A stretch of DNA of 64,000 bases, from positions 82,149-146,148 of the forward strand of contig JBDRCT010000013.1 of NCBI GenBank assembly GCA_043821445.1, in the 5' to 3' direction. Positions 30,544 to 47,108 of the stretch are shown here, one piece after another. The position numbers and the translations under genes are program-made. The stretch's first letter is position 1, and each line of letters starts with the position of its first letter. Under the pieces are notes generated by a model. The model had not been told where the DNA came from. It made no database searches and worked only from the letters and a program-made list of their open reading frames with translations. The DNA is from Candidatus Omnitrophota bacterium. GTDB lineage: Bacteria; Omnitrophota; Omnitrophia; Omnitrophales; Aquincolibacteriaceae.

Positions 30544-31238
30544 AAGTTCCCTCCTTGGAGCCAATAAGCCCAGACGTAATAAATACCCGCGCCGATGAAG
30601 ATCACGCCTGTCATCTTGCGCGTATAAAGTTCGATCTTGGTCAACCTGTGGAACCAATGGCTCAAAGATGTCACGCCAAGAGCTATCGCCACGGCAAACG
30701 CCAACACAGGCAGGCCGGTGCCAATTCCATAAATGAACGGCAGGAGTGCGCCCACCGGATGATTAAGCGCCAAAGGAATGAGACTTCCGAAAAAAAGCGC
30801 CGCAGACACGGGACAGAACGCGAGAGCGAAAATAAAACCGAGCAGAAAAGCTCCAGGCGCACCGGACTCGGCGAGTTTATTGTGATGCTTTTGGGAAAGA
30901 GAAAGGCCGGGCAAGCGGACAGTCATGATCTCAAGAAGCAGCAATCCCGTTACGATCAAAAGCGGTCCTAGCACCTTCCCCATGTATCTCTGGAGAAATA
31001 GAGCGGTCTGCGGGACGCTCACAAGAGAATGTATAATGATCCATCCCAGGACGGCGTAGGAGACCACTCTTCCGAACGTATACGCCAAACCCGAAATGAA
31101 AACGGCAGCCGGATGCGCGATCTTTTTTGACAGAAAAGAGACCGCCGCGATGTTCGAGGCCAAAGGACAGGGACTGATCGAGGTTAGAATCCCCAGCCAA
31201 AGCGCAGAAAACCAGCCGACCCAGAATTGATCCATCAC
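30540..31238 (-). CDS. Cytochrome c biogenesis CcdA / DsbD transmembrane-domain protein
   Basis: [12 protein letters not shown] ... [12 protein letters not shown] (paired TM Cys). Confidence 0.75.
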
Positions 31239-31669
31239 GCCTCCTTCAGGAAGGCGGCGACTTCATCCCGCACATAATTCTCGTACCGGTCTTTATTGCG
31301 AACATATTCCCAGATCTTGTCGAGGTTCTTGGAACGGATTTCTTTGCCATCTTTTGTGAGAGAGAGAATAACGGATTTGGTGTAGAGCTGATAATCCTTC
31401 GCAAAATGCTCGTTGCCCTTACTCTCGACATTCACGACCCTAAACGCGAGCTTCCCGGAAGCCAAAGCTTCCTTAAAATTACTCTCAATGGCCTCTTGGG
31501 CATACTGCTCCAATTTTTTGCAAGTCGGACAACGAAAAGTTCCGTGAAAATAATAAGCTGTGACAACACCGCCTGCGGACACTTCCTCGGCCATGACAGG
31601 AGAAGTCCCGAAGCATAAATGACTTGCCAGTGCAACAGCTATCAGCAAAAGGAGAGTGTGTTTTTTCAT
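31235..31669 (-). CDS. Secreted thioredoxin-like protein
   Basis: Signal peptide, CPTC motif. Confidence 0.6.
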   Translation of the reverse strand: MKKHTLLLLIAVALASHLCFGTSPVMAEEVSAGGVVTAYYFHGTFRCPTCKKLEQYAQEAIESNFKEALASGKLAFRVVNVESKGNEHFAKDYQLYTKSVILSLTKDGKEIRSKNLDKIWEYVRNKDRYENYVRDEVAAFLKEA

Positions 31670-31678
31670 GGGTCCCTT

Positions 31679-31912
31679 TTATTTCGCAAGGATCTTTTTG
31701 ATCTCGTTTGTGTTTAACAGCTTTCCCGTCGAAACCACCGTGCCGTCGACCACCACGGCAGGAGTCATCATTACGCCATAGCCGGTAATCGCATCGATGT
31801 CTGTCACCTTAACGATCTCAGCCTGAATGTTAAGCTCCTTAACCGCCGCTTCCGCGTTCGCGGTAAGTTGTTCGCATTTCGGACAACCTGTTCCAAGAAT
31901 TTCTATTTTCAC
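31679..31912 (-). CDS. Small thioredoxin-fold redox-active disulfide protein
   Basis: MKIEILGTGCPKCEQL...; 77 aa, common in ars operons. Confidence 0.7.
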   Translation of the reverse strand: MKIEILGTGCPKCEQLTANAEAAVKELNIQAEIVKVTDIDAITGYGVMMTPAVVVDGTVVSTGKLLNTNEIKKILAK

Positions 31913-32712
31913 AGCCCACCTCCGGTGTTTTTTTCTTTTACAGCTGAAACTTTGATGCTAGCTACTGTGCCTTCAGCATTTCTGAGATCTTCGAACATCG
32001 TATCCACGGGATAACTTGCTTCGCTGATCACCTTAACATTCTGGAATCCCGCCACTTCGATGCACCTCAAATATTGATCCTTTTTGATCGCCCCGGCAAG
32101 GCACCCTACATAAGCATTGATCGATTCTTTCAGAGCCTTCGGCAGTTCCCGAGTCAGCACCAGATCGGAAACCATCAGCCTACCCCCGGGTTTTAACACC
32201 CTAAAAGCCTCTTTAAAGACTTTCTCTTTTTCCGGAGAGAGGTTAATGACGCAATTGGAGATAATGAGATCCACGGACTGATCTTCAACGGGAAGCACTT
32301 CGATCTCGCCCAAACGGAACTCCACGTTCTCATACTCCCCTTTCCCGGCATTTTCTTTGGCCTTCGCAATCATTTCGGGCGTCATATCAACACCGATCAC
32401 GCGGCCGGCTTTACCGACCTTCTTCGCCGCAAGAAAAACATCGAATCCGGCCCCACAACCAAGATCCAGCACCACATCGCCCTCTTTAATAGCCGCAAAA
32501 GCTACGGGATTGCCGCACCCGAATCCCAAATTCGCGCCTTTGGGAACCGCATTTATGTCTGTATCGCTATACCCGATCTTTTCGCTTATCGCCTTTGCCT
32601 GACTTACGTTTCCGCAGCACGAACCGGACGAACAACACCCGATATGCTGTTCAAGAGCCTTGGCATAACCCTTGCGGACTATTTTTTTTATTTTGTCAGT
32701 GCTTTTTCCCAT
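31909..32712 (-). CDS. arsM: Arsenite S-adenosylmethionine methyltransferase ArsM
   Basis: N-terminal CC/CC Cys pairs (IGCCSSGSCCG), SAM motif VLDLGCGAGFD, C-terminal Cys. Confidence 0.8.
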   Translation of the reverse strand: MGKSTDKIKKIVRKGYAKALEQHIGCCSSGSCCGNVSQAKAISEKIGYSDTDINAVPKGANLGFGCGNPVAFAAIKEGDVVLDLGCGAGFDVFLAAKKVGKAGRVIGVDMTPEMIAKAKENAGKGEYENVEFRLGEIEVLPVEDQSVDLIISNCVINLSPEKEKVFKEAFRVLKPGGRLMVSDLVLTRELPKALKESINAYVGCLAGAIKKDQYLRCIEVAGFQNVKVISEASYPVDTMFEDLRNAEGTVASIKVSAVKEKNTGGGL

Positions 32713-32721
32713 AGTTTTCTC

Positions 32722-33894
32722 CTAAATAACAATAGCGCCGAAAATCATGCCGCTAATCGTTGCCATCACTACGACGAGACAGACATAAACGGCGGTCTTT
32801 TTGGTTCCGATCACACTGCGAATCACGAGCATGCTGGGAAGGCTCAACGCAGGCCCCGCAAGAAGAAGCGCCAATGCGGGACCTTTCCCCATTCCGGAAC
32901 CGATGAGACCTTGGAGAATAGGCACTTCGGTCAGCGTGGCGAAATACATGAACGCCGCGACGATGGATGAAAAGAAATTGGCTCTCAAGGAGTTTCCGCC
33001 CACCAGGGCCGCTACATATTTCGAGGGAATGACACCTTCGTGCCCCACCCGCCCAAGCAAGAAACCGGAGATCAGGACACCTCCCAAAAGAAGCGGTAGA
33101 ATTTGAAGCGCGAAAGTCCAGGAGGCAGAGGTCCATTCCTTCAGTTCTTCTTTTTCGAACCACTTAATGAGCATGATCGCAAGCACGGCCAGGGAAATCC
33201 CGGAGATCCACCACCTATATTGGTAGATCAGGGCCCACGTTCCATGATCTCCTTCAAGGGGCTTGCCCCAATTCGCAAAAACAAGAAACGCGATCATCGA
33301 AAAAAAATAAAGGACCGTTTTGCCTAAGGACCGTGTTTCTTTGACCTCTCCTACATTAAAATCACCGCTTACCTGACGCGCTTGTTCTTCTTTGAGAAAG
33401 ATAAAATGCATCAAGAGCCCGATCACGACGCTAAAGATCACAGCCCCCACAGCTCTTGCCAATCCGAGCTGCCAGCCGAGAATACGGGCTGTCAGGATGA
33501 TCGCAAGAACGTTGATGGCAGGACCCGAATAAAGAAAGGCTATCGCCGGGCCGAGGCCCGATCCCCTTTTATAGATCCCCGAAAAAAGCGGCAGAACGGT
33601 GCAAGAACAGACGGCCAAGATCGTTCCCGAAACCGAGGCAACGCTGTAAGAAAGAAATTTATTGGCTTTGGCTCCGAAGCATTTCATGACGGATGCTTGG
33701 CTGACGAACACAGAAATGGCACCGGCAATAAAAAACGCCGGAACAAGGCAAAGGATCACGTGCTCACGAGCATACCATTTGACAAGAGCGAGAGCTTCAA
33801 AGATAGCGTTCGTGAAACGAAGATTTTCGACCGGAAGATAAAAACACGCTAAAAATCCTGCTAAGACATAAAGAACTTTTTTCCATTCATTCAT
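32722..33894 (-). CDS. arsP: DUF318-type permease, ArsP-like (organoarsenical efflux)
   Basis: Two-repeat permease; AVCSCTVLP resembles the ArsP TPFCSC motif; ars context. Confidence 0.6.
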   Translation of the reverse strand: MNEWKKVLYVLAGFLACFYLPVENLRFTNAIFEALALVKWYAREHVILCLVPAFFIAGAISVFVSQASVMKCFGAKANKFLSYSVASVSGTILAVCSCTVLPLFSGIYKRGSGLGPAIAFLYSGPAINVLAIILTARILGWQLGLARAVGAVIFSVVIGLLMHFIFLKEEQARQVSGDFNVGEVKETRSLGKTVLYFFSMIAFLVFANWGKPLEGDHGTWALIYQYRWWISGISLAVLAIMLIKWFEKEELKEWTSASWTFALQILPLLLGGVLISGFLLGRVGHEGVIPSKYVAALVGGNSLRANFFSSIVAAFMYFATLTEVPILQGLIGSGMGKGPALALLLAGPALSLPSMLVIRSVIGTKKTAVYVCLVVVMATISGMIFGAIVI

Positions 33895-34208: not shown

Positions 34209-34228
34209 TTATGCACATATGTGCATAA
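34209..34228. promoter_or_regulatory. Perfect 20-nt palindrome TTATGCACATATGTGCATAA 13 nt upstream of the DUF134-1 start (candidate operator)
   Basis: 15/20 positions identical to the palindrome upstream of DUF134-2 (38366-38385); consensus TTATnnnCATATGnnnATAA. Confidence 0.5.
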
Positions 34229-34273: not shown

Positions 34274-35188
34274 TCAGGTTAGGAATGCGACGCTGAAAAT
34301 GCCGGATGTGGTCTGGGTCTTGTTGCTCCCAAGAACATCCTGCTGGACGCCCAGTTCAAACCGCAAATGATCGCCCAGTGGCATAATGACGCCCAGCACC
34401 AAGCTCACCAGATTGGCGGTCTGTCCTTGCCCTGCGAAATCGTGCAGATAGATCAATTCGGCTTCCGGCTGCAACCACCAGAACACCTGATAGCCTGCCG
34501 CGAAATTCGCGTGTGCCGTCCCATAATAATGATTCGTCCGCTCCCAATGCGCGAGCGGAGCATTGTAACCCAGATTCACGGTCCCGTTCCACCGGCCGAT
34601 GTCTTTGGTGAACGCGAAGGAGTTATCCAGGCTGGTGTAACCCTGGCTGGCGCCGAGGTGATCGAGATTGCTGCGCCGTCCGGTGGGAATGAAGATCGTG
34701 GGCATATACGCGATCTCGAGTTTCTTCTCTGCGGAATCATAGAAACGCCACTTGCCAGCCACGCCGAGATCGCCCCAGCCGAACCCGTGCGAAGGCCCCT
34801 CGGTCTCATCTTCCAGTCTCTCCCCCGTATCCGGGTCCGACAGATCCCTGAACTCATCATAGTTGTTCTCTTTGTCCAAAGTATGCTGGAACCAATTGAT
34901 GATCCCGACATCGATATCTTTATAGACCCCGACCGTTACCTGGCTTTCCCATACCTGGGCCAGATAAGTTCCCCGGTTCTCTCTCGCGCCGTTCGACTTC
35001 CAGGCGAATTTGCCTCCCTGGAGCACATAAGAGCCCCACACCTCGACTTGCCCGGGATCATTTGGCGTGGCATCCGTGGTCACGACTTTGGAATGTTCCT
35101 CGATCGCCAGATTGTCCGCAACGTGCGTCGCGTAAAGAGGGCTTGAAACGGTAAGCAGCAAGCATAGAAAAAGAAGGTTTCGCGTCAT
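34274..35188 (-). CDS. Outer-membrane beta-barrel-like protein, paralog 1 (last gene of the fur-feoAB operon)
   Basis: Signal peptide MTRNLLFLCLLLTVSSPLYA, conserved TGRRSNLDHLG, C-terminal ...SVAFLT; 48% identical paralog at 41570-42511. Confidence 0.55.
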   Translation of the reverse strand: MTRNLLFLCLLLTVSSPLYATHVADNLAIEEHSKVVTTDATPNDPGQVEVWGSYVLQGGKFAWKSNGARENRGTYLAQVWESQVTVGVYKDIDVGIINWFQHTLDKENNYDEFRDLSDPDTGERLEDETEGPSHGFGWGDLGVAGKWRFYDSAEKKLEIAYMPTIFIPTGRRSNLDHLGASQGYTSLDNSFAFTKDIGRWNGTVNLGYNAPLAHWERTNHYYGTAHANFAAGYQVFWWLQPEAELIYLHDFAGQGQTANLVSLVLGVIMPLGDHLRFELGVQQDVLGSNKTQTTSGIFSVAFLT

Positions 35189-35358
35189 GTTTTTTCCTCC
35201 GGTTTTGAGGTGCTGTCTTTTTTTTCTAATTTTTGCCTGCCCGCGGGCAGGCAATCGGGGCCGCAGCGCCCTCCGCCCTTTTTGCCAAAAAAACAACGTA
35301 GCGCAAGAAGAGCCGCCAATGCCACAACGCTTAATGCAATGGTCTCATTAGTTTCCAT
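35185..35358 (-). CDS. FeoB-associated Cys-rich small membrane protein (57 aa; not in ORF track)
   Basis: METNETIALSVVALAALLALRCFFGKKGGGRCGPDCLPAGRQ...; one TM + Cys cluster; AGAGGA SD; TGA overlaps barrel ATG. Confidence 0.45.
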   Translation of the reverse strand: METNETIALSVVALAALLALRCFFGKKGGGRCGPDCLPAGRQKLEKKDSTSKPEEKT

Positions 35359-35379
35359 AGTTGTCCTCTTTTCTGTTTA

Positions 35380-37605
35380 TTATTCGAATCCCAAAAGCCG
35401 ACCGCCTTGGTAGACTACAAAAGAAGCCGACCATGCAAGGCCGGTCATGTAAAGAATCATGAAGAACATCCAGCCCCAAGACCCGGTTTCGCGCTTCACG
35501 ATCGCAAAGGTCGAGAAACACTGACAGGCTAGCACGTAGAAGACCATGAGAGAAAGCGCCACAAGCGGCGTGTAACTAGGTTTTCCGGTGATAGGCGAAC
35601 GCTGCTTTTGAAGCGCCTGAATGAGACCGACGGTCATACCCTCGCCTTGGGTCTCGACGTGATGCACGATCGCAAGCGTACTGATCAAAAGCTCGCGCGC
35701 CGCGAACGAAGCCACGATCCCGATGCCGATCTCCCAGTTAAAACCCAAAGGGCGGATGGCCGGTTCGATGGCTTTCCCGAGAGACCCGGCAAAACTTGAC
35801 CGGATCTGAAGATTCTTTTGCTCATGCTCGATGGCATCAAGACGCTCCTCTAGGGCTTCTCCGCTCAGCACTGATGAAGCTTGCTGCTGCGCGAGCTCAA
35901 AACGTGTCTGGGCTGCGGGATCTTTCGGATAGCTCACGCAAAACCAGAGCACGATCGACAGCAGGAAAATGATACCGCCCGCCCGGGTGATGAATTCCTT
36001 GGCGCGGTCCCACATGGTACCCAACACGGTTTTGAGATGCGGAACGCGGTAAGGCGGCAGTTCAAACACGAACGGCATCCTGTTCCCTTTGAGGAATGTT
36101 TTCCTGAAGAGCGCGGCGATCCCCAGTCCGGCTCCGATACTCAAGAGATAAAGCCCGAGAAGCGTCACTCCTTGGAGATGCAAAAGATGGAACACGTGAA
36201 TGTTCGGGATGAATGCCGCGATCAAAAGCGTGTAAACGGGAAGCCTGGCGCTGCAACTCATAAGAGGTGCCACGAGGATCGTCGCGAGCCGGTCGCTGCG
36301 GTCTTCGATCGTACGTGTCGCAAGCACTCCGGGGACCGTGCACGCAAAAGAACTCAAGAGCGGCAAGAACACCTTTCCGTTCAGCCCTACTTTTTTCATA
36401 AGCTTGTCGAGCACGAACACTGCGCGTGCCATATAGCCCGTATCTTCAAAAAGCGCGATAAAAAAGAAAAGCAGGAAAATCTGCGGCAAAAAAACGATCA
36501 CATTCCCGACGCCCGCGATGATACCGTCCACCACAAGGCTTCGAAGGGCCCCCTCCGGAAGCCACGCTTGAGCGAGACCGCCCAGCTTTTCAATAACCCG
36601 GGAAAGAAGGTCCATCGGCGCTTGCGCCCAGGAGAAGATCGATTGGAAGATGACACCCATGATCACGATGAAAGCTCCAAGGCCCCAAACGCGGTGCGTC
36701 AGGATCCTGTCAAGCCGATCCGAAAAAGCCGGGACCTTGCGGGACGCGCGCCGGACGACTTGAGCACAAAGATCATCGATCGCCCGGTACCGGCATTCCG
36801 GTTCCACGGAGGTCCAATCGATCCCGCTTTGCTTGAGTGAGGACCGGACGCTCAAAACCTCCGTCCTCAAAAGATCCCCCGTTTTCATGTCTTTGAAAAA
36901 AGGGCTCCGAAAAAGTCGGTCCGGCAAAAGCCTCAAGGCCTCCCCAAAAACCGCCCCCGGACGGTCCCTCAAACGGCTTTCGATCAGGGCTACGATTTTA
37001 TCGAGTTCGGTCTTCAGCCCCTCGGGTAAGAACGGCCCCAGGGAAAACTTTGCCTGCTGAGCGACCGGATTAAGAAGTGTCAGCGCGATCGTCTGCTGAA
37101 GTCTTGCGATCCCTTCACGCTCCATGCCAATAGTCGCCACACAAGGGACGCCCGTGAGCTCTGATAACCTTTCGAGATCGACCGCCATTCCGTTCCTTTG
37201 AGCCATATCCCACATATTCAGCACTAAAATCGCGGGGATCCCGGTTTCCAAGACTTGCGTCGCCAAATAAAGATTTCTCTCGAGATTATTGGCGTCGAGG
37301 ATCACGAGCACGAGATCCGGAGGCGGCGTATCCTTCCTTATCCCCAACAAAACATCATGAACGACCTCCTCGTCCAAGGAACGCGGCAAAAGACTGTAAG
37401 CGCCCGGAAGGTCCAGTACCGCTATCTCTTCACCTCCGGGGAATTGCATCCGTCCCATTCTCTTCTCGACCGTCACGCCGGGATAATTGGCCGTGCTATG
37501 ACGGAGACCGGTCAGGGCGTTAAAGATCGTGGTTTTCCCCGTGTTCGGATTCCCGACCAGAGCGATCTCCCTGCGTTTTTCTCCCGGATCATTTTCCGTC
37601 ATCAT
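35380..37605 (-). CDS. feoB: Ferrous iron transporter FeoB
   Basis: G-domain IALVGNPNTGKTT, DLPG, NMWD, membrane domain; start MMTEND. Confidence 0.9.
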   Translation of the reverse strand: MMTENDPGEKRREIALVGNPNTGKTTIFNALTGLRHSTANYPGVTVEKRMGRMQFPGGEEIAVLDLPGAYSLLPRSLDEEVVHDVLLGIRKDTPPPDLVLVILDANNLERNLYLATQVLETGIPAILVLNMWDMAQRNGMAVDLERLSELTGVPCVATIGMEREGIARLQQTIALTLLNPVAQQAKFSLGPFLPEGLKTELDKIVALIESRLRDRPGAVFGEALRLLPDRLFRSPFFKDMKTGDLLRTEVLSVRSSLKQSGIDWTSVEPECRYRAIDDLCAQVVRRASRKVPAFSDRLDRILTHRVWGLGAFIVIMGVIFQSIFSWAQAPMDLLSRVIEKLGGLAQAWLPEGALRSLVVDGIIAGVGNVIVFLPQIFLLFFFIALFEDTGYMARAVFVLDKLMKKVGLNGKVFLPLLSSFACTVPGVLATRTIEDRSDRLATILVAPLMSCSARLPVYTLLIAAFIPNIHVFHLLHLQGVTLLGLYLLSIGAGLGIAALFRKTFLKGNRMPFVFELPPYRVPHLKTVLGTMWDRAKEFITRAGGIIFLLSIVLWFCVSYPKDPAAQTRFELAQQQASSVLSGEALEERLDAIEHEQKNLQIRSSFAGSLGKAIEPAIRPLGFNWEIGIGIVASFAARELLISTLAIVHHVETQGEGMTVGLIQALQKQRSPITGKPSYTPLVALSLMVFYVLACQCFSTFAIVKRETGSWGWMFFMILYMTGLAWSASFVVYQGGRLLGFE

Positions 37606-37849
37606 ATTCCGCCTTTTGAACAAGTATTTTTGAGGCGTCCTGCTTCCGGATCGAGAGGCTGTACCCCCGGAGCACGACCTCCATGGGGTCGCCCAGCGGC
37701 GCAAAACGCTTCACCAGGATCCTCGTGCCATGGACGAGGCCGAGCTCTTTAAGCCGGTAGTGGAGGTCTTCTTCTCCTTGGTAGCCCTGGACAACACCCC
37801 ACTCCCCGGCTTTCAATTGATCGAGAGTGATGCGATTCATTTCCGGCAT
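37589..37849 (-). CDS. feoA: FeoA
   Basis: SH3-like FeoA: LDQLKAGEWGVV...LKELGLVHGTRILV. Confidence 0.8.
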   Translation of the reverse strand: MPEMNRITLDQLKAGEWGVVQGYQGEEDLHYRLKELGLVHGTRILVKRFAPLGDPMEVVLRGYSLSIRKQDASKILVQKAEYDDGK

Positions 37850-38265
37850 TTTTTGCAAAGCCCCACAAGTTGATGACAATGGTGCTCCAATTTAAAACGG
37901 TACTTTTCCGCAACGCGGCGTTGCGCCTTCTCGATCTGGGGGTCCTTGAACTCCACGATCTTCTCACACTCGCGGCAGATCAAGTGATCGTGGTGGGCCT
38001 TGAAATACCCGCATTCATAATAAGTGTCGCGACTCGTCCGGAAACTTTGCGCGACCACACCTGCCTCAAGAAGGATCGGAAGATTCCGGTAGACCGTGTC
38101 CCGCGAGACCTTCAGCCCTTGCTTCTTCAGACAGGAAACAAGGATATCCACGTTGAAATGCCCGCGCTGATGCCTGATCCCCTCGATCAGTTTGAGCCGT
38201 TCCCCCGTCAGACGGCATCCTTTGCCTCGGATAAACCCTTCGAATTCTTTTTGATTTTTGATCAC
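37837..38265 (-). CDS. fur: Fur family transcriptional regulator
   Basis: HHDHLICRECEKIVEF, CxxC pairs; GTG start. Confidence 0.8.
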   Translation of the reverse strand: MIKNQKEFEGFIRGKGCRLTGERLKLIEGIRHQRGHFNVDILVSCLKKQGLKVSRDTVYRNLPILLEAGVVAQSFRTSRDTYYECGYFKAHHDHLICRECEKIVEFKDPQIEKAQRRVAEKYRFKLEHHCHQLVGLCKKCRK

Positions 38266-38282
38266 GGAGAGAGGATCCTCTT

Positions 38283-38338
38283 ATTAAGATTAAGTCTGAA
38301 TAAGCGGGAGTGTAGCGGAAGGACCGCGGTATGTCAAC
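38283..38338 (-). promoter_or_regulatory. Candidate fur-feoAB promoter (-35 TTGACA / 17 / -10 TACACT) with tandem ATTAAG hexamers downstream (Fur-box-like)
   Basis: attaagattaag at 38283-38294 between -10 and the GTG start. Confidence 0.3.
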
Positions 38339-38340
38339 GC

Positions 38341-38385
38341 TTGACAAAGATACACCTCTTGACTATTATTGGCATATGCTAATAA
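38341..38385 (+). promoter_or_regulatory. Promoter of the DUF134-2 operon: -35 TTGACA / 17 / -10 TATTAT overlapped by the palindrome TTATTGGCATATGCTAATAA
   Basis: Divergent from fur; palindrome 38366-38385 matches the DUF134-1 operator. Confidence 0.5.
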
Positions 38386-38400
38386 CCTCTGAAGAAGCCC

Positions 38401-38703
38401 ATGCCAAGACCTTTTAAATGTAGACGCGTTTGCGGAACGCCCGGAACAGACTATTTTAAGCCCAGAGGTATTCCTCTCTCCAATCTCCAGGAAATCGGCC
38501 TAACGATTGATGAGTTTGAAGCGATCCGCCTTGCGGACTTGGAAGGCCTTTACCAGGAGGACGCCGCCAAGAAAATGGACATCTCCCGTCAGACATTCGG
38601 AAACATCATTGCGTCCGCTCATAAGAAGATCGCAGATGCCATTGTGAATGGTAAAGCCCTTAAAATCTCGGAAAACAAAGATATTAAGGAAACACAGACA
38701 TGA
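38401..38703 (+). CDS. DUF134 (UPF0251) predicted DNA-binding protein, paralog 2
   Basis: MPRPFKCRRVCGTPGTDYFKPRGIP...IDEFEAIRLADLEGLYQEDAAKKMDISRQTFGNIIASAHKKIADAIV. Confidence 0.8.
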   Translation: MPRPFKCRRVCGTPGTDYFKPRGIPLSNLQEIGLTIDEFEAIRLADLEGLYQEDAAKKMDISRQTFGNIIASAHKKIADAIVNGKALKISENKDIKETQT

Positions 38704-38873
38704 TAAAGATCGAAGGAAAACTGTGCAACGGCTGTGGAATCTGCAAAGAAATTTGCCCAGTAGACGGGATCAAGATTATAGACGGTAAGGCTGTAGCTAA
38801 TGAACAATGCATTGATTGCGGGACCTGCATCGCATCCTGTGCGTCCGGAGCGATCTCTCCGGCTGAAAATTGA
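38700..38873 (+). CDS. 4Fe-4S ferredoxin (57 aa; not in ORF track)
   Basis: MIKIEGKLCNGCGICKEICPVDGIKII...CIDCGTCIASCASGAI; two CxxCxxCxxxCP motifs; ATG overlaps DUF134-2 TGA. Confidence 0.7.
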   Translation: MIKIEGKLCNGCGICKEICPVDGIKIIDGKAVANEQCIDCGTCIASCASGAISPAEN

Positions 38874-38886
38874 TCCGGTATTGATT

Positions 38887-39480
38887 ATGGACTCAGTGCT
38901 GCTGTCACTCAGGAAAAGGACAAGGCAGTTCAAGCGATACGGCTACGACCTCCCTGCCTCCCGCCGGTTCATCTGGAAACTATCAGGTATTTGTCACGGG
39001 GAAGTCCTCGAAATCGGAACCGGCAAGGGGCATTTGACCGCCCTGCTGGCCCAGAAAGGTCTCAAGATCATCTCGGTCGATCTTGATGGAGAGGTTCTCA
39101 AGACCGCAAAAACTCACCTGTCCGCGCTAAAACTCAGTAAACGCGTTTCGCTCCGGAAGATGAATGCGGAAAGACTCCGGTTCAAGTCAAGGAGTTTTGA
39201 CAACGTGATCTCCATAGATTTTTTTCATCACGCCCGAAACCCGCTCCGTTGCCTCCGGGAAATGATGCGAGTAACTCGAAAGACCTTAACAATCGCGGAT
39301 TTGAACCAAAACGGTATGCGGATCATGGACCTTGTTCATAAAAGTGAAGGAAAGAGACACGAAACCCCCAAGATCCCATTTGGAGACCTAAAAAAGCATT
39401 TTCTCGCACATCATTTTAACGTCAAAAGTTATCGTCACCCATGCCACCAAATTTTTGTGGCGCAAAGGAGGAGTTCATGA
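38887..39480 (+). CDS. Class I SAM-dependent methyltransferase
   Basis: VLEIGTGKGHLTALLA motif I; start MDSVLL (track ORF begins earlier, overlapping the ferredoxin). Confidence 0.7.
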   Translation: MDSVLLSLRKRTRQFKRYGYDLPASRRFIWKLSGICHGEVLEIGTGKGHLTALLAQKGLKIISVDLDGEVLKTAKTHLSALKLSKRVSLRKMNAERLRFKSRSFDNVISIDFFHHARNPLRCLREMMRVTRKTLTIADLNQNGMRIMDLVHKSEGKRHETPKIPFGDLKKHFLAHHFNVKSYRHPCHQIFVAQRRSS

Positions 39481-39842
39481 AGATCTGCATCCCCACAACA
39501 ACCAAAGACGGAAAGTCCGCCCAAGTTTACGAACATTTCGGAAGTGCGCCTTTTTTTACTATTTGTGATTCAGATAAAAACACTATCGAGATCATCGACA
39601 ACGCAAACCAGCACCACTCCCACGGCATGTGCCAGCCCATGAGCGCGCTCGTCGGAAAAGAAATCGATGCGGTCGTTACCGGAGGCATGGGAGCCAGAGC
39701 TGTCCAGAAACTGAACGAAGGCAGGATCAAAGTCTACCGCGCCATCCCCGGAACTGTCGAAAATATCTTGAAGCAATTTTCAAAAGGTGGTCTTCAGGAA
39801 CTGACTATTGAGAATGCCTGCGCTCAACACGGGTGCCATTAA
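39477..39842 (+). CDS. NifB/NifX-type dinitrogenase FeMo-cofactor-binding domain protein
   Basis: MKICIPTTTKDGKSAQVYEHFGSAPFFTICD...AVVTGGMGARA; ATG overlaps methyltransferase TGA. Confidence 0.7.
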   Translation: MKICIPTTTKDGKSAQVYEHFGSAPFFTICDSDKNTIEIIDNANQHHSHGMCQPMSALVGKEIDAVVTGGMGARAVQKLNEGRIKVYRAIPGTVENILKQFSKGGLQELTIENACAQHGCH

Positions 39843-39875
39843 ACATTCCGGTGTGAGGATCTGTAGACTAAACAT

Positions 39876-40343
39876 ATGCGACAAACCCAAGAAAAGCTTA
39901 AATCATTACAAAGCCGTTTTCATGCGGCCTGCGTAGTTTGCGGAAGAGAAAATCCTCAAGGCATGAAATTGCCTTTTCACACCTGCAAGGACGGCTCGGT
40001 CAAAGCATGGTTCTTCTGCGATCAGCTTTTGCAGGGATATCCCGGATTGATGCATGGTGGCGTGATCGCGGCGATCCTCGACGGAGCGATGATGAATTGC
40101 CTTTTTGCCCAGGGTAGAATAGCCGTGACAGGGGTTTTGACGGTTTGTTTTGTGTCCCCCCTTGCCGTAAAACAGACTGCGACCGTCCGGGCACGGGTGA
40201 AAAAATCTATTTCCTCGTGTCATATCTTGGAATCAGAACTCTTGCAAGGCAGGCGCACCGTTGCGAAAGCGACGGCCAAATTCATGGAATGCACGGAACA
40301 TTTTCTCAGACAACATAAAATAGCGGAGGAGGAAAGAAAATGA
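39876..40343 (+). CDS. PaaI-family hotdog thioesterase
   Basis: LMHGGVIAAILDGAMMNC. Confidence 0.65.
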   Translation: MRQTQEKLKSLQSRFHAACVVCGRENPQGMKLPFHTCKDGSVKAWFFCDQLLQGYPGLMHGGVIAAILDGAMMNCLFAQGRIAVTGVLTVCFVSPLAVKQTATVRARVKKSISSCHILESELLQGRRTVAKATAKFMECTEHFLRQHKIAEEERK

Positions 40344-40513
40344 ACTTGTGGATCCGGCTGCTGGCCTTTGTGTGTGAAATCTGCCCTTTATGTATCACGG
40401 CGAGGTGTTTCCCAAATTCCAAATTCGCCGCGAGCATGAAGCGACTAGAAAAGTTTTGCCCTTTTTGCAGCGCCCACGAAAAGTTAAAACAAGATAACGA
40501 AAAATCTCAATAA
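40340..40513 (+). CDS. Cys-rich 57-aa peptide (CxxCPxC...CPFC), not in ORF track
   Basis: MNLWIRLLAFVCEICPLCITARCFPNSKFAASMKRLEKFCPFCSAHEKLKQDNEKSQ; GGAGGAGGAAAG SD; ATG overlaps thioesterase TGA. Confidence 0.4.
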   Translation: MNLWIRLLAFVCEICPLCITARCFPNSKFAASMKRLEKFCPFCSAHEKLKQDNEKSQ

Positions 40514-40516
40514 ATC

Positions 40517-40861
40517 ATGAAAGAGACGGCTAAAGCTTATTTTTTAGGAAAAAAAGGATCCCGCAGGCTGAATTGCGCTCAATCGGTGGCTGAGACATTC
40601 CGGGAGAAATACCCTCTGGACGAGAAAAAAACGACTATTCTCTCCGCATGCGGTGGGGGCATGGCCCCGGAGGGATACTGCGGCGCGTTTTACGCAGCAA
40701 AATGCCTTCTGGACTATCATTCCCCCCATCGCACCCAAGAAAGCATGGCGCAGCTTCATTCTGCCGCAGGCTCCCTCAAATGCCGGGAGATCAAAGCTTT
40801 AAAAAAACTGCCGTGCGTCGGCTGCGTTGAAAAAGCCGCGGAAGTGGTCGAAGAAAAATGA
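40517..40861 (+). CDS. C_GCAxxG_C_C family redox protein
   Basis: LNCAQSVAETF ... CGGGMAPEGYCGAFYAAKC. Confidence 0.75.
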   Translation: MKETAKAYFLGKKGSRRLNCAQSVAETFREKYPLDEKKTTILSACGGGMAPEGYCGAFYAAKCLLDYHSPHRTQESMAQLHSAAGSLKCREIKALKKLPCVGCVEKAAEVVEEK

Positions 40862-41565
40862 AAATTCGGCTTATTGCCGAAGGCTCAACAAGACGCGAAC
40901 GAAAGATCCTCCGGTGGGGCCTGGCCTTTCTTGTCGGGAACGTTCTCTTTGACACCTTCGGCCGGAAAGATATTTTTAAAAGAAACATCAGGCGCTTCGG
41001 GATTGATCTGTCCCGCGTCAAACATGTCGTGATCTCACATGAAGACTGGGACCACATCGCCGGGCTTGAGAATTTTCTTAAAACTCATCCTAAAACACCT
41101 GTTTATGTCTGCAGGAAATCCGGTAACGCGTTAAGAAAAATAATCCGCAGCAACGGCGGCTCACTTATCGAAGTCGACAAACCCCGAAAGATAAGCCGCA
41201 ATATTTTCTCTCTCGGTCAAATGCGGGCCGATACAGGCCGAGGCATTCTTTATGAGCAGGCTCTCGTTGTGAAGTCGCGACATGGTTTTTCCGTGATCAC
41301 GGGCTGCGCCCACCCAGGGATCTTCCGGATCATCAGACAGGCCATCAAGATATTCGGGAATAAAATTTACACCATTTGCGGCGGATTCCACATGAAGGAC
41401 AATACGCAGGAAGAGAATTAAAAAATCATCGAAAAACTTCAAGCGCTCGGCATTAAAAAGGTCATCCCCCTCCACTGCACTGGCGCAACTGCCCGCCGAT
41501 TATTCCAAAAAACCTACGAAAGGAATTTTGTGACCTTACGCGAAGGCAATACGCTTACCCTCTAA
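40858..41565 (+). pseudogene. MBL-fold metallo-hydrolase interrupted by an in-frame TAA (41419-41421)
   Basis: ISHEDWDHIAGL ... GGFHMKDNTQEEN*KIIEKLQALGIKKVIPLHCTGATA: the C-terminal PxHCTG motif continues in frame after the stop. Confidence 0.6.
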
Positions 41566-41569
41566 ACGG

Positions 41570-42511
41570 TCAGGTCGCGAAGGCGACTCGAAAGATACCT
41601 GTGGTAAGCTGGTCTTGATTGCTGCCCAGGACGTCCTGCTGAACGCCGAGGTCGAAGCGGAGATGATCGCCCGCCGGAATGATCGCGCCCGCTACCACAC
41701 TCACAAGCTTTCCGCCTTTGCCGGGGTTTTCAAAACTATGGTTATAAATAACCTCCATCTGAGGGTGAAGCCAGGAAAGCAACTGGTAACCCGCCGCCGC
41801 ATTAAAATTCCAGGTGCCGCGGTAGTTCCCCGTTTTTTTCGAATTCGCAAGCGGTACGTTGTAACCCGTGTTCAAAGTCCAGCAGAACCGTTTGTATTCC
41901 TGGGTGTAGATCAGATTGTTCGCAAAACTTACATAACCCGCCCCCGGCCCCAGATGATCAAGATTGCTGCGTCGGCCCGTCGGCAAATAGACCGTCGGGC
42001 TATAAGCCAGTTCGAATTTTTTCTCCTTATTCTCGTAAAACCGCCAACGACCCATAACCCCAAGGTCCCCGCGGCCGCCTCCGTGTGTCGGCCCGCCGAT
42101 CGTATCTTCCATTGCCTCGCCGGTCAACGGATCGATCTCGTCGGCGACTTCATTATCATTATTGTTTTTGTCGAAAAGATGATAAAAGCTCTGGAAGATC
42201 GCCATATCAATGTCCTTATAGAGTCCGATATAGGTCTCGACATCCCAAGCGTGAGTGAGATAGGTTCCCCGGTGATAACGCTCTGCATCCGTTTGCCAAG
42301 CGAATTTCCCGCCACGAAGCGAATAGGCAAGATCGACCTCGACATGGCCGGGATCCGTAGGTGTAGCATCTAAGGTCAGCAGCTTGGAATGGCATGCTTC
42401 TGTTTCTTCCTCATTTTGAATGGCAGGATCAACACGTATTTGTTCTGACGCTAGGGCAACGGATGTGAAAACTACGCTAAAAAAAAAGATGGGGAAAAAT
42501 CGCGCCTTCAT
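41570..42511 (-). CDS. Outer-membrane beta-barrel-like protein, paralog 2 (downstream of nikMN-nikR)
   Basis: Signal peptide MKARFFPIFFFSVVFTSVALA, TGRRSNLDHLG, ...RVAFAT. Confidence 0.55.
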   Translation of the reverse strand: MKARFFPIFFFSVVFTSVALASEQIRVDPAIQNEEETEACHSKLLTLDATPTDPGHVEVDLAYSLRGGKFAWQTDAERYHRGTYLTHAWDVETYIGLYKDIDMAIFQSFYHLFDKNNNDNEVADEIDPLTGEAMEDTIGGPTHGGGRGDLGVMGRWRFYENKEKKFELAYSPTVYLPTGRRSNLDHLGPGAGYVSFANNLIYTQEYKRFCWTLNTGYNVPLANSKKTGNYRGTWNFNAAAGYQLLSWLHPQMEVIYNHSFENPGKGGKLVSVVAGAIIPAGDHLRFDLGVQQDVLGSNQDQLTTGIFRVAFAT

Positions 42512-42516: not shown

Positions 42517-42912
42517 TTATTCCGTCGAACAAGCAATCAAGTCTCCGCCCTTGATCCCTTTCAATCCGATCAGCTTTTTTGACAGACCATTCAGCTCTTT
42601 CGCATGGCCCTTCACGAGAATGGTTTCGAGACAATTGTGGTGGTCCAGATGCACATGCTGGCCCGAAAGAATGAGGTGATGATGGCCATGCTGGATGGTC
42701 ATGAGATTGTTAAGAAGATCGCGCCGGTGATGGTCATAGATCAGCACGATGCAGCCGGCCACCAGCCGGTTGTCCTTCCATTTGTCCTGGAGTAAATTTT
42801 TCCGTACGAGAAACCGTATCGCCTGCGAACGGTTGGGAAGTTTGTGTTTGGACACGAGGCGGTCCAATTCTTTCAAAAGAGAATCTTCTAAAGAAACTCC
42901 GAATCGTTTCAT
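42517..42912 (-). CDS. nikR: Nickel-responsive regulator NikR
   Basis: RHH N-term (VSLEDSLLKELDRLV) + C-terminal His cluster HGHHHLILSGQHVHLDHHNC. Confidence 0.8.
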   Translation of the reverse strand: MKRFGVSLEDSLLKELDRLVSKHKLPNRSQAIRFLVRKNLLQDKWKDNRLVAGCIVLIYDHHRRDLLNNLMTIQHGHHHLILSGQHVHLDHHNCLETILVKGHAKELNGLSKKLIGLKGIKGGDLIACSTE

Positions 42913-42925: not shown

Positions 42926-43840
42926 TTACGCTGCGGTTTTGAGTTTCATGCCGGTAAAGCATCGGGCCAAAAGCCAGCCCATGGCAAAAGTCAACAATAC
43001 GCCGATCAAACCGGCCAATCCTATGGACAGAATCCCGTTTTGCAGCGCCGGAACAGCATAATCCGACAACGGGCTCACGAATGCGGGTGCGGCTTCGTGC
43101 AAGAACTGATATTTTTCAGCAACCCATTCGAGCCCGTCTGGAAATCCGCTGGCAAAAGGACTCCACAAAGCTCCGATTGTCACGGCCGCCAAAAGCGGTA
43201 CTCCAACATTCCACTGTGGAGAACGGCTTAAAGCTTTCGATGAAAGAACGCGGTAAGCTGCCACAGCAATCAATCCTTCACCGACCCCGATCAAGGCATG
43301 AACGCTTAACATCGTACCGGCAACCCTTGCAAAAGGGATCGCTCCCGAAACTCCCAGTTCGATACTGCACGCCAGCGCCGCCAAGATCACGGAAAGCCAT
43401 CCCGCCACACCAAGCGATGACAAGCAGAAGACCGAATCTTTTGCAGAAGCCCCTGCAAATCGCTTAAAAAGGAATCCTCCCGCCCCCGCTCCGATCAAGG
43501 CCATGTTCAGGATGTTGGCGCCAAGGACCGATGCGCCGCCGTCGGAAAATACAAGACACTGGATAAGAAGGACAAGCGTGATCGCCAGAATACCGAAAGG
43601 AACGCCGAGCAAAGCGGATGCGAGCACGCCCCCCAGGAGATGACCAGATGTGCCGTTCTGGATGGGAAAATTCATCATTTGTGCCGCAAAAATAAATGCC
43701 GCGACCGCTCCGAAACGGGATGCCGCAGGTTTTTCTTTGGACCTCAATGCCATGATCGCGGCGGCGGCAATGCCGAGCGCGCTTACGGTGGCAGTAACGG
43801 GACAAATCTGACCGTTGAGCATATGATCCGGAATGTGCAT
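42926..43840 (-). CDS. ECF-type Ni/Co transporter substrate-capture component, CbiM/NikM with C-terminal extension (NikMN-like)
   Basis: Starts MHIPDHML (CbiM signature MHIPDGxL); ~305 aa. Confidence 0.7.
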   Translation of the reverse strand: MHIPDHMLNGQICPVTATVSALGIAAAAIMALRSKEKPAASRFGAVAAFIFAAQMMNFPIQNGTSGHLLGGVLASALLGVPFGILAITLVLLIQCLVFSDGGASVLGANILNMALIGAGAGGFLFKRFAGASAKDSVFCLSSLGVAGWLSVILAALACSIELGVSGAIPFARVAGTMLSVHALIGVGEGLIAVAAYRVLSSKALSRSPQWNVGVPLLAAVTIGALWSPFASGFPDGLEWVAEKYQFLHEAAPAFVSPLSDYAVPALQNGILSIGLAGLIGVLLTFAMGWLLARCFTGMKLKTAA

Positions 43841-43973
43841 GCAAGACCTCCTTGAATTAGCGTGAAAAGAAATAGGTGTTACGTTTCTTAGGAAGATGCT
43901 ACTCAAAAAGATGTGGCTGTCAATCTTTTTTAGATTACTCGTCTAATGCTTGAGTTGACCCTTCCAGAAAGTT

Positions 43974-44804
43974 TTATTGTTTTGACAATCTAGGAAGCAA
44001 AGTTCTTATTAGCGCGAGTAAGATCAAGAGCCCTCCGAAAACGCATACCACCGCTGCTCCGGTCGGAAGATCAAAGCAATAGGAAAGCCCAATCCCTGCA
44101 AGGCTCGCAAGGATCCCAAAACCCCACCCTAAAAAAAGCCTGCCGGATATTTTATCCGAAAAAAGGATCGCTCCGACCGCCGGGATGATCAGAAAAGCAA
44201 AAACCAGAAGCACGCCCGCGATACGCACCGAGCTCGTTACCACGAGACCAAAGGTCAGATAAAAAAGGATGTCCCACCATCGGACCTTGATCCCTTTTTG
44301 AGAAGCCACTTCGGGTTGGGTCGAGATCAGAAGAAACGTCTTACGGAAATACCAGTGGAATAAACCCACGATGCCGTAAAGGACCGCCATCGTCACAATC
44401 TCGGGAAAACCCACCAAAAGGATATTGCCCACAAGCATGTGCCGGATCTCTTCATCCCCTTCCGCCGCCCGACTCAGGATCAAGACGGCTGCGGCAGCAG
44501 CGACCGCATAGACGATCCCAATAATGGCCTCCTGGGGGATCTTTTCTCTGCGGGTTCGCGTCACGGAAAAGATGATGGCTCCGACAAAAGTCGCACCGAG
44601 GGAGAACCAATAGGTTGCATGTCCGTGAAGACTGAACCCGAACATGAAGGCAAGAACCGCGCCCAAAGCCGCGATCTGTGCCAGAGCCAGGTCCACAAAA
44701 ATGACCTTCCTTTCAACGACATGGACCCCCAGATAGGTATGGATCCCCGTCAGGATGAAGCAAGCCAACAAAGGTTTCCACATCAAAAGAAAAAAATCAC
44801 TCAT
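43974..44804 (-). CDS. Metal ABC transporter permease (ABC-3, ZnuB/MntB-like)
   Basis: 8 TM, 276 aa. Confidence 0.8.
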   Translation of the reverse strand: MSDFFLLMWKPLLACFILTGIHTYLGVHVVERKVIFVDLALAQIAALGAVLAFMFGFSLHGHATYWFSLGATFVGAIIFSVTRTRREKIPQEAIIGIVYAVAAAAAVLILSRAAEGDEEIRHMLVGNILLVGFPEIVTMAVLYGIVGLFHWYFRKTFLLISTQPEVASQKGIKVRWWDILFYLTFGLVVTSSVRIAGVLLVFAFLIIPAVGAILFSDKISGRLFLGWGFGILASLAGIGLSYCFDLPTGAAVVCVFGGLLILLALIRTLLPRLSKQ

Positions 44805-45742
44805 GAAGCACTGCCTTTCTGCTCACCCAATGCGCCTTCGAGCAGGCTGATGTCTTGTTCCATAAGGGATATATAGTCTTTCGCGTTCTCTGGTTCGCCA
44901 ACTGCTTGTGACAAATTGACGATCCGAATACCCGTTTCTTCTGCTATTTTCTTGGGGGTTCTGTTCTCCTCGAAGTATTCCTTGATGATCACCTTCGCGC
45001 TTTTGTCTTTTATTTGCTGAATAAGTCCCGCAAGATGTTTTGCCGTAGGAGGAATGCCGGGCTTGGGTTCCACCTCTCCGATCACTGAAAGACCGAACCG
45101 CTTAACGAAATAGGACCAACTACGGTGATAGGTCACGACCGGGGCGCCCTGGAATCCTGCCATTCGCTCTTCCCAATCTTTGATCTTTGCATCCAGTCGC
45201 TCATTAAAATTCACTGTGTTTACCCTGTAGAAAGCCGCGTTTTTGGGATCCACACTCGCCAATCCTTCGGCAATATTCGAGGCAATGACCTTCGCATTCT
45301 CGGGATCGCCAATGTAATGAGGATTACCGAAAATATGGATGTCTCCTTCGGCCCGCGATAAGGCAGCGGGGATCTCAAGGAGCGAGATCCCTCTGGAGAC
45401 ATCAATAGAAGATTTTCCCTCTCCTAAAAAACGGGGGTTGCCAGCGGCATCCAGTAACGGCTGACGCCAGGCTTCCAGATCCAGCCCTTCGTGAATGAAC
45501 ACATCCGCCCGTTTGACCCTGAAAACATCCTTGGGGGTCGGTGCATAATGATGGATGTTCTGTTTGGGCGAAGCGATCGCTTGAAGGCGGATCTTATCCT
45601 GGGCCACTTCCTTGGCGATACTGGCCAGAGTGGTGGTCGTCGCGACGACACTCAGTTTTTCCGCTCCGAAAAGAGTCCCTGAAAAAAGCAGCAAAAAGCT
45701 TAGGCCCAAAGTTAATGCGATATTTATCTTTTTAGTAAGCAT
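44801..45742 (-). CDS. Metal ABC transporter substrate-binding protein (ZnuA/TroA-like)
   Basis: Signal peptide, LSVVATTTTLASIAKEV..., His-containing metal site; no ATPase gene adjacent. Confidence 0.75.
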   Translation of the reverse strand: MLTKKINIALTLGLSFLLLFSGTLFGAEKLSVVATTTTLASIAKEVAQDKIRLQAIASPKQNIHHYAPTPKDVFRVKRADVFIHEGLDLEAWRQPLLDAAGNPRFLGEGKSSIDVSRGISLLEIPAALSRAEGDIHIFGNPHYIGDPENAKVIASNIAEGLASVDPKNAAFYRVNTVNFNERLDAKIKDWEERMAGFQGAPVVTYHRSWSYFVKRFGLSVIGEVEPKPGIPPTAKHLAGLIQQIKDKSAKVIIKEYFEENRTPKKIAEETGIRIVNLSQAVGEPENAKDYISLMEQDISLLEGALGEQKGSAS

Positions 45743-45767
45743 AACAATTCTCCTGTAATTAAAAGAT

Positions 45768-47108
45768 CTATTGAATGGCATGTTTGTGGTTGCCCGCTAA
45801 AAAATCCACTACGAAAAACGCGGCATTGTCCGTTTTTTCGCCGCCCGCATAGACCGTGTGCGAATATTGCAATTTCACATCTACATACTCGCTTTGCCAG
45901 AAGATCAAATAAGGCGAAACCGATGTGGTGCCATGCTGACCGGAGACATCGAGCGGATTAACATAATCAAAACGGACTCCAGGGCTTAACCTCGGGGAGA
46001 GCTTGTACTCCACAAGCGAATAAAAACCCCATGGCTTTGCATTGGTGGAATTAACAAGATCCGGTCTGTTCTGAAAATAAATCTCGTTCTGCCATGTCAT
46101 CTGTTTCCCCTCAGGCAGGAACCAATTAAAGGTGGCATCTCCCCCATACACCTTTACACCATACCAATCGGTTCCTTCCGGTCGTGTCCATTCCGTGGTC
46201 GTTCCGCTACCGTCATCGATCGTTAACGGCGGATTGACGGTCCCGAACATTGTCGTCCAGCCTAATTCCAGATTTGTATCGGACGATGGCTCAAAGAAGG
46301 TTTTGAGGTGCGTATTGAAAATAGGACGTCTCGAAACCCCGGCAAAACTCGCGCCGTTATTTCCCCGCAAGATTTCTCCGGTAACCTCTAAAGGCAGATC
46401 CCAGGGATTCGGAATGTTGTTCCTAAGACGCAGCCCGGATGAAGACAATCCTTCGTCCCCGAAAAAGTTCTGGATAACTAGCGGATAGTCCGCCGCGGGT
46501 AGTGCGTGGGCATGCATGAGATTCGCTTTTCCGATGTTGGCGCGGAATTTGCCGATCTGTCCCGTGAACCCAAGTGGCAATCCCCATCGGGTGTAATATG
46601 CCTCTTCGAGATGAATGACATGCTCCTCGATATGATCGTTAAGACTGATCGTTGCATCAAACCGGGAGTAGGGATCCACCACTTGCCCCAGAGTAATTTC
46701 AAACTCTTTCAGCGCGGTCGCGTTATTGCCCTCCGTGTCCGACTTGTTCTGGGTCAATTTTGTTTGCACCGTCCCCGCAATCCCGATATCCGGGTTCCAT
46801 CCTGCATTGGCCTTGGGATTTGCCAGCGTAGGGGTTTGCGGTATCGCTGCGGCTTGGAGAGGGAGCAAAGTCTGTTTTTTCTCAAACACCTCGATCCGAT
46901 AATTTTGCCGCTCGATAATTTCGTTTTGGGCCCGGACTGTCGATTTCAGGACTTCCATATTGCTTTCCATGGTGGCAACCATCCGTTTGATGTCCGCCAT
47001 TTCCTGCACAAGGTTTGGCCTGCCATTGGGTTCAGCCAATGCAGTTCCGATAGGGCCGAGGTAAAAAAGAGACAATAAAAGAGAAAATATCCATAGATGA
47101 AGTCGCAT
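45768..47108 (-). CDS. Putative outer-membrane porin with N-terminal coiled coil, upstream of znuA/B
   Basis: Signal peptide, coiled coil (MESNMEVLKSTVRAQNEIIERQN), beta-rich body. Confidence 0.5.
   Translation of the reverse strand: MRLHLWIFSLLLSLFYLGPIGTALAEPNGRPNLVQEMADIKRMVATMESNMEVLKSTVRAQNEIIERQNYRIEVFEKKQTLLPLQAAAIPQTPTLANPKANAGWNPDIGIAGTVQTKLTQNKSDTEGNNATALKEFEITLGQVVDPYSRFDATISLNDHIEEHVIHLEEAYYTRWGLPLGFTGQIGKFRANIGKANLMHAHALPAADYPLVIQNFFGDEGLSSSGLRLRNNIPNPWDLPLEVTGEILRGNNGASFAGVSRRPIFNTHLKTFFEPSSDTNLELGWTTMFGTVNPPLTIDDGSGTTTEWTRPEGTDWYGVKVYGGDATFNWFLPEGKQMTWQNEIYFQNRPDLVNSTNAKPWGFYSLVEYKLSPRLSPGVRFDYVNPLDVSGQHGTTSVSPYLIFWQSEYVDVKLQYSHTVYAGGEKTDNAAFFVVDFLAGNHKHAIQ

Follow-up and report, generated by a model that had tools for sequence, protein, structure and literature searches.

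Paralogous COG4313-type outer-membrane barrels in the feo and nik operons of a Candidatus Omnitrophota genome: candidates for dedicated metal entry channels

The passage of free Fe2+, Ni2+, Co2+ and Zn2+ across the outer membrane to Feo, energy-coupling factor (ECF) and ATP-binding cassette (ABC) importers is usually ascribed to unspecified general porins. To our knowledge, very few dedicated non-TonB outer-membrane metal channels have been described; Bradyrhizobium MnoP is an outer-membrane Mn2+ channel. Here, a 64-kb stretch of a Candidatus Omnitrophota metagenome-assembled genome (MAG), hereafter the window, was analyzed for two paralogous outer-membrane barrel proteins, OMP-A and OMP-B, encoded in a fur-feo operon and a nik operon, respectively (Table 1). 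Both are strong candidates for dedicated outer-membrane metal entry channels, an interpretation which an earlier note on this DNA had proposed and which comparative genomics and structure prediction now support, transport itself being predicted.

Fur-regulated candidate porins for Fe2+ uptake, psp and an OprB-like gene upstream of feoAB, have been predicted in Geobacter and Desulfuromonas (Rodionov et al. 2004, PMC545781). As in the window, the ferrous-iron route was proposed to be a barrel encoded within a Fur regulon or an feoAB operon, by prediction only in both cases; however, those proteins belong to other families (PF07396-like and PF04966), and no nickel-linked paralogs were described for them. 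Francisella FupA works with FeoB (PMC4905997). MnoP and FupA resemble OMP-A and OMP-B in being non-TonB outer-membrane proteins co-regulated or paired with an inner-membrane divalent-metal importer, but they come from unrelated families, are experimentally supported and do not lie within the importer operon in the same way, whereas OMP-A and OMP-B are known from genes and models. Nickel has been reported to cross the outer membrane via TonB-dependent receptors, which are NikR- or Zur-regulated (PMC11247825). The Ni/Co/Zn receptors FrpB4, FecA3 and ZnuD are such NikR- or Zur-regulated uptake parts, as is proposed for OMP-A and OMP-B, but these receptors are 22-stranded, TonB-energized and usually take up chelates, while OMP-A and OMP-B have 12 strands and no TonB-receptor domains. 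Zhang et al. 2009 make no mention of outer-membrane components, and the literature search, which covered COG4313/PF13557 with metals and Omnitrophota with FeoB, found no earlier account tying this family to metals, with a prior mention in Rodionov et al. 2006 being possible.

The known members of COG4313, the family to which both barrels belong, are found in the context of aromatic or sphingosine metabolism, whereas the OMP-A/OMP-B subfamily is found in the context of metal uptake, has its own motifs and is strongly acidic; Pput2725 (PDB 4rl8) shares about 10-13% identity with it. The genomic context argues for a substrate class other than the hydrophobic molecules proposed for the family, and the role suggested here is a new one for a known channel family.

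The earlier note had described the two proteins as paralogs sharing about half their residues, including a TGRRSNLDHLG block, with signal peptides and aromatic C-termini, and most of this description stands. OMP-A and OMP-B are identical at 152 of 273 positions (56%; 71% positives, gapless, E 1e-106 in BLASTP), the block PTGRRSNLDHLG is identical in both, and both proteins start with Sec-type signal peptides, read by eye as MTRNLLFLCLLLTVSSPLYA|T and MKARFFPIFFFSVVFTSVALA|S. Only the C-termini fit less well, as OMP-A ends in VAFLT and OMP-B in VAFAT, with Phe at -3 and Thr as the final residue; a C-terminal F or W occurs in more distant family members. The gene orders, and the coordinates of both open reading frames, were also as the note had given them. 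On the minus strand, OMP-A is last in the order fur-feoA-feoB-57-aa Cys-rich peptide-OMP-A, where the peptide stop codon and the OMP-A ATG overlap as ATGA (translational coupling), with GGAGG 8 nt upstream, and a strong promoter-like site for the next gene lies directly 3' of OMP-A. OMP-B follows nikMN-nikR, its ATG lying 5 nt after the nikR stop. Because of the ATGA overlap, the 5-nt gap and the separate promoter after OMP-A, both barrel genes are regarded as terminal cistrons of their operons. The barrel is the sole outer-membrane component in these operons.

The Cys-rich peptide gene is kept between feoB and the barrel gene in relatives. In L033 (8001-9083, protein P0088) and also in L026, peptide and barrel are called as a single in-frame 360-aa product, in which the peptide is followed by the barrel's own Met and signal peptide; this could be either a real fusion or a read-through call. 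An insertion of glycosyltransferase genes separates the L033 product from fur-feoAB, 5 kb upstream of it, and the Cys-rich peptide travels with the barrel and not with feoB.

The linkage between barrel and metal-transporter genes is strongly conserved beyond this genome and its phylum. Alignment A4 served for the locus scan, alignment A3 being too diverse for it. The genome scan covered 24 distinct loci, 22 from Omnitrophota or unassigned MAGs and 2 from Victivallales. In 23 of them feo, nik or znu genes adjoin the barrel gene. The order fur-feoA-feoB-(peptide)-OMP accounts for 16 of the 24, and in L026 feoAB lies 5 kb upstream of the barrel. The order nikMN(-nikR)-OMP is present in L020, L021 and the Victivallales locus L028, znu genes adjoin the barrel in L012 and L027, and the C-terminus of an ABC ATPase lies directly upstream of it in L024. 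The arrangement varies, with nikR-nikM-nikN-nikQ-nikO-OMP in L036 (47% identity to OMP-A), OMP-DUF4198-cbiM-HI_1622_C-cbiQ-ATPase with larA nearby in L031 (37% identity), and znuA/C-znuB-methyltransferase-OMP-nikMN-nikQ-nikO in L029 (34% identity). Individual look-ups found no transporter neighbour at L034 or at L035, the latter lying at a contig end.

A metagenome scan of 62 loci, seeded from a distant clade (about 25-35% identity), gave metal-linked neighbours (Ni/Co ECF, FeoAB, Znu, cobalamin/TonB) in 35 loci. Ni/Co ECF genes adjoin the barrel in 19/62, often with nikR just upstream, and feoAB in 9/62, here in the reversed order OMP-feoA-feoB. Znu or Fur-family genes are adjacent in 4/62 and BtuF-like/CbiC or TonB/TBDR (TonB-dependent receptor)/CbiK genes in 3/62, while a Fur-box-like sequence alone was found in 10/62. 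One locus, L044, is ambiguous, as its upstream neighbours are ABC ATPase genes and nikR is 4 kb distant. Linkage with metal transporters in other genomes, which the earlier note had asked for, is therefore present, and it is accompanied by NikR-, Fur- and Zur-type operator sequences.

In the window, the palindrome CTTATTCAGACTTAATCTTAATAAG is unique, with 0 chance matches expected, and it is kept in 14 of 15 compared orthologous fur upstream regions, whose flanks diverge; it is presumably the operator of the operon's own Fur-family repressor. The nikMN promoter and AAACGTAACACCT are kept in L020 and L021, and the GTAACAC half-site within AAACGTAACACCT may tentatively be assigned as a NikR operator. 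In the Victivallales locus L028, two perfect GTGTTAC-N13-GTAACAC boxes lie upstream of nikMN-OMP, and this sequence is the delta-proteobacterial NikR box (Rodionov et al. 2004). Over all loci, NikR-box-like sites number 11 against 1.25 in shuffles, including sites between nikR and the barrel gene (L041, L053, L062) and directly upstream of the barrel gene (L029, L064). Fur-box-like matches number 23 against 1.2 in shuffles; 3 are false positives within coding sequence (DKENNY motif), and 16 lie at the 5' ends of barrel genes, among them the OMP-feoAB operons L066-68 and L091-93. Also among these 16 is a clade of stand-alone barrels, which represents only one or two independent Fur-box events and bears GATAATGAGAATCATTATC, one mismatch from the E. 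coli consensus. As well, a Zur-like TGTTATAATGTAACA is present in L056 beside znuCB and a Fur-family gene. By their place in metal-uptake operons and by the predicted binding of metal-sensing repressors, the barrel genes would belong to metal regulons.

In the stand-alone clade (L075, L077, L078, L080-L083, L085, L086, L088), the near-consensus Fur box overlaps the start codon, so that a very short or absent 5' leader is implied. The sequence AATA-ATG-AGA-ATC-ATT-CTC encodes MRIIL, with which the signal peptide begins, and operator and coding sequence coincide. In L029, a perfect GTATTAC-N13-GTAATAC palindrome (3618-3644) precedes a long operon of a prepilin-type N_methyl protein, a ZnuA-ATPase fusion, ABC-3, methyltransferase, the barrel and nikMN-Q-O, and a second, imperfect copy (7794-7820) immediately precedes the barrel gene; the ABC-3 and ECF importers of this locus may be under a single NikR-like regulator.

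Both proteins match PF13557 (Phenol_MetA_deg, COG4313), OMP-A with 34.7 bits and OMP-B with 27.5 bits, above the gathering cutoff of 22 bits, and the same family is preassigned in most homologs. A protein annotated 'MAG: transporter [Candidatus Omnitrophota bacterium]' matches OMP-A at 100% identity; among NCBIfam models none matches OMP-A or OMP-B, and a PDB sequence search with OMP-A gave no match, 4rl8 being reached only by the family profile. That profile aligns GDL and PTG to 4rl8 residues 86-155, spanning D92/T94 and P119-T120-G121, and the conserved loop cluster of COG4313 (D..T and P-T-G motifs, loops L2-L4) is present. Of 1.84 billion cluster representatives, a subfamily profile recovered only 302 at E <= 1e-3, and 112 passed E <= 1e-30. 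The OMP-A/OMP-B subfamily is a small distinct clade within COG4313/PF13557 and has motifs of its own, namely N-terminal EHxKLxTxDAxPxxPG, PTGRRSNLDHLG, WLQPExE and GVQQ.

An AlphaFold2 model built with 41 diverse homologs has 12 beta-strands (predicted local distance difference test score, pLDDT, 87.7; predicted template modelling score 0.79); a first run with 26 close homologs was set aside (pLDDT 61). Together with the PF13557 scores, this model predicts an outer-membrane barrel and not a periplasmic or cytosolic protein. Residues 30-47 are non-beta, confidently modelled and highly conserved in the alignment, and would probably form an N-terminal plug in the barrel. A long loop spans 106-133, and the loop at 168-185 bears PTGRRSNLDHLG. 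Mature OMP-A carries a net charge of -15 and its long extracellular loop L2 one of -8, the acidic L2 insertion being found in Omnitrophota members, and strand alternation suggests a lumen lined by many conserved acidic, basic and His residues. An RND (resistance-nodulation-division) pump and a TolC-like OEP, likewise encoded in the window, indicate a diderm envelope.

Taken as a functional proposal, OMP-A and OMP-B are probably N-terminally plugged, 12-stranded barrels that pass divalent transition-metal cations and are co-made with the matching importer. OMP-A would be co-made with Fur, FeoA, FeoB and the FeoB-associated peptide, and OMP-B with NikMN and NikR, and each barrel would be produced only on derepression of its inner-membrane importer, Fur and NikR being the presumed regulators. 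The barrel would then most likely let divalent cations through to the periplasm, where Feo would receive Fe2+ and the ECF S-component Ni2+/Co2+, while the acidic surface and extracellular loop might concentrate cations at the pore. Such a protein would be a narrow, cation-attracting channel whose production is confined to metal limitation. All three importers, Feo, the ECF S-component and ZnuABC, depend on free metal in the periplasm.

Several points weigh against this proposal. The characterized COG4313 proteins TcpY, SphA and Pput2725 are thought to carry hydrophobic compounds, and it has been argued that their occluding N-terminus is incompatible with a classical hydrophilic channel (PMC4493636). 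For the subfamily, the plug and a polar lumen lining are predictions from secondary structure and strand-residue alternation. In the window, the fur-feo palindrome is not a canonical Fur box, and the canonical two-half-site NikR box is absent at the nik promoter, where one half-site only was found. Among the distant-clade loci, 16/62 have no metal link, 8 of them on contigs under 2.5 kb. Moreover, no alignment column consistently separates Feo-linked from Nik-linked members, and the two kinds interleave on a neighbour-joining tree without support values, in which OMP-B nests among the Feo-linked L018 and L019. An ancient Fe-versus-Ni split was rejected, as the contexts interleave on this tree. 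Since Fe- and Ni-linked members interleave and share no discriminating residues, a generic divalent-cation channel, repeatedly recruited into different metal regulons, appears more likely than ancient metal-specific pores.

A bolder version, which we consider doubtful, is that the subfamily is a widespread and hitherto unrecognised class of dedicated divalent-metal channels gated by the conserved His/Asp/Glu-bearing N-terminal plug, the Feo version of which would couple via the Cys-rich peptide to FeoB and form an envelope-spanning Fe2+ route.

Another reading of low probability is that a small organic or hydrophobic metal complex (metallophore or chelate, such as a Ni- or Fe-ligand complex or a corrinoid precursor), instead of free cations, is imported through the barrels by the lateral or hydrophobic route proposed for other COG4313 channels. 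The family precedent of hydrophobic substrates, with detergent bound within Pput2725 (PMC4493636), would suit such a route, as would the distant members found beside BtuF-like binding proteins with CbiC or beside TonB/TBDR/CbiK genes. However, the dominant partners, FeoB, the NikM/CbiM ECF S-components and ZnuABC, take free periplasmic ions, in the window the barrel genes have no metallophore synthesis genes as neighbours, and the barrel protein is strongly acidic, not hydrophobic.

Of about the same low probability is a role in the envelope that is co-regulated with metal starvation and is not a permeation route, such as surface metal binding or sensing, anchoring or partnering of the FeoB-associated peptide, or metal-sparing substitution for another outer-membrane protein. 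The N-terminal segment may fully occlude the barrel, and the Cys-rich peptide gene stays with the barrel despite the 5-kb insertion after feoB and forms one in-frame product with it in L033. Against this, the nik-linked copies are without the peptide, and the barrel accompanies importers of three unrelated mechanisms (Feo, ECF, ABC-3), which have nothing in common but their dependence on metal in the periplasm.

It is very improbable that the linkage arose by lineage-specific accident and lacks functional meaning, with the proteins taking up hydrophobic compounds as is supposed for other COG4313 members. Most close homologs do belong to a single phylum, in which synteny could have been inherited, but the linkage recurs in varied orders (barrel at either end, nikR present or absent, next to feo, nik or znu) and in distant clades (25-35% identity) and Victivallales with metal-regulator boxes directly upstream, and no aromatic or lipid catabolic genes are adjacent.

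Table 1. Features of the fur-feo, nik and znu-linked gene strings in the window
Feature	Position	Strand	Basis and remarks
Sigma-70-like promoter of fur-feo operon, TTGACA-17-TACACT	38309..38337	-	Consensus scan; same -35/-10 layout in orthologous loci
25-bp palindrome CTTATTCAGACTTAATCTTAATAAG, candidate Fur-family (7-1-7 type) operator	38280..38304	-	Directly downstream of -10
fur (ferric uptake regulator family)	37837..38265	-	PF01475, E 1.8e-28
feoA	37589..37879	-	PF04023, E 1e-17; true start probably an internal ATG
feoB	35380..37605	-	FeoB_N, Gate, FeoB_C domains; open reading frame extends to 37704, start likely the ATG of MMTEND...
57-aa FeoB-associated Cys-rich membrane peptide	35185..35358	-	One transmembrane helix and CGPDC motif; weak PF12669 match, E 0.0098
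OMP-A, 304 aa, predicted 12-stranded outer-membrane barrel, COG4313/PF13557 subfamily	34274..35188	-	Last feo-operon gene
Promoter-like site of nikMN-nikR-OMP-B, TTGACA-16-TAGCAT	43896..43923	-	Consensus scan; kept in L020, L021
Single GTAACAC NikR-box half-site	43876..43882	-	Downstream of -10, within conserved AAACGTAACACCT
nikMN (CbiM and PDGLE/CbiN-like fusion), Ni/Co ECF S-component	42926..43840	-	PF01891 E 5e-45; PF13190 E 1e-14; NCBIfam CbiM and CbiN matches under their cutoffs
nikR	42517..42912	-	NikR_C E 1.3e-27 and RHH_1
OMP-B, 313-aa OMP-A paralog	41570..42511	-	Last nik-operon gene; PF13557 27.5 bits
znuA-like ABC-3 metal uptake gene	44801-45781	-	NCBIfam AztC/ZnuA-type match, below cutoff
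znuB-like ABC-3 metal uptake gene	43974-44804	-	NCBIfam AztB/ZnuB-type match, below cutoff
446-aa signal-peptide protein, possibly OmpL/BBP2-type barrel	45768..47108	-	First gene before znuA-znuB

The nik operon is part of a longer minus-strand order of the 446-aa signal-peptide protein, znuA-like, znuB-like, nikMN, nikR and OMP-B. Tblastn with CbiQ, CbiO and ZnuA-ZnuC queries found no CbiQ/NikQ, CbiO/NikO or ZnuC homologs in the window. ATPase and T-component genes are present in the operon of the relatives L036 and L100, and the ATPase and T components for NikMN and ZnuA/ZnuB must be encoded elsewhere or shared. RNA searches of the window and 7 related loci found no cobalamin or NiCo riboswitch, only a tRNA.

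The third gene, which the earlier note had called an unrelated porin-like gene before znuA/B, does have this position and is unrelated to OMP-A and OMP-B, being of a different, weakly assigned family; its porin-like nature is supported only by a sub-threshold match to Pfam BBP2 (PF07642; 15.1 bits against a gathering cutoff of 26.2, E 0.014), which does not place it in that family, and by the few of its homologs that carry PF07642. A PDB sequence search with the protein gave no match. The gene is common in Omnitrophota, and the order of its homolog with znuA-(znuC)-znuB is kept in L012, L099 and L100, with 49-55% identity in L099 and L100. It may be a separate candidate of the same kind, its assignment as a barrel being weak. 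Directly upstream (47151-47450, minus strand) lies a gene for a 99-aa membrane protein with a HHDGDKDDGDRCPLC motif, which has the same position in L012, is near nikMN in L020 and gives a weak DUF2946 match only; a role as a metal-binding accessory protein is possible.

The feo and nik operons flank a divergently transcribed cluster (38401-41421, plus strand), which encodes a DUF134 regulator, an S-adenosylmethionine (SAM) methyltransferase, a NifX/Nitro_FeMo-Co-like protein, a PaaI-like thioesterase, a C_GCAxxG_C_C protein and a metallo-beta-lactamase (MBL)-fold protein. The cluster is syntenic with feo or barrel genes in many Omnitrophota loci and possibly functions in metal-cofactor handling. 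Downstream of OMP-A, a detoxification-type cluster (24825-33894, minus strand) comprises a DUF134 regulator, an ArsP_1 permease (SO_0444-like), a SAM methyltransferase whose N-terminal segment is Cys-rich, a signal-peptide protein of 144 aa that has a CPTC motif and no Pfam match, DsbD_2, an SBF/ACR3-type transporter, the TolC-like OEP and the AcrB-type RND pump, and L034 has a comparable cluster after its barrel gene. Palindromes with a common GCA(C)ATATG(T)GC core, TATGCACATATGTGCATA (34210-34227) and TTATTAGCATATGCCAATAA (38366-38385), lie at the promoters of the two DUF134 genes and are candidate DUF134 operators; TTATTAGCATATGCCAATAA is identical in L009.

The proposal that OMP-A and OMP-B pass divalent metal cations bears on how related proteins are named and used. 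A compact barrel subfamily is embedded in Fur-, NikR- and Zur-type loci of Omnitrophota, Victivallales and other uncultured lineages, which suggests that in this clade the 'transporter' and 'phenol meta-pathway' annotations mislead. Metal homeostasis would here make use of a channel family to which hydrophobic substrates have been ascribed, and its own sequence signature together with a confident model gives experimenters a concrete protein to express. If the subfamily were indeed a class of plug-gated metal channels, it would specifically explain the passage of Fe2+, Ni2+ and Co2+ through the outer membrane of many non-model diderms.

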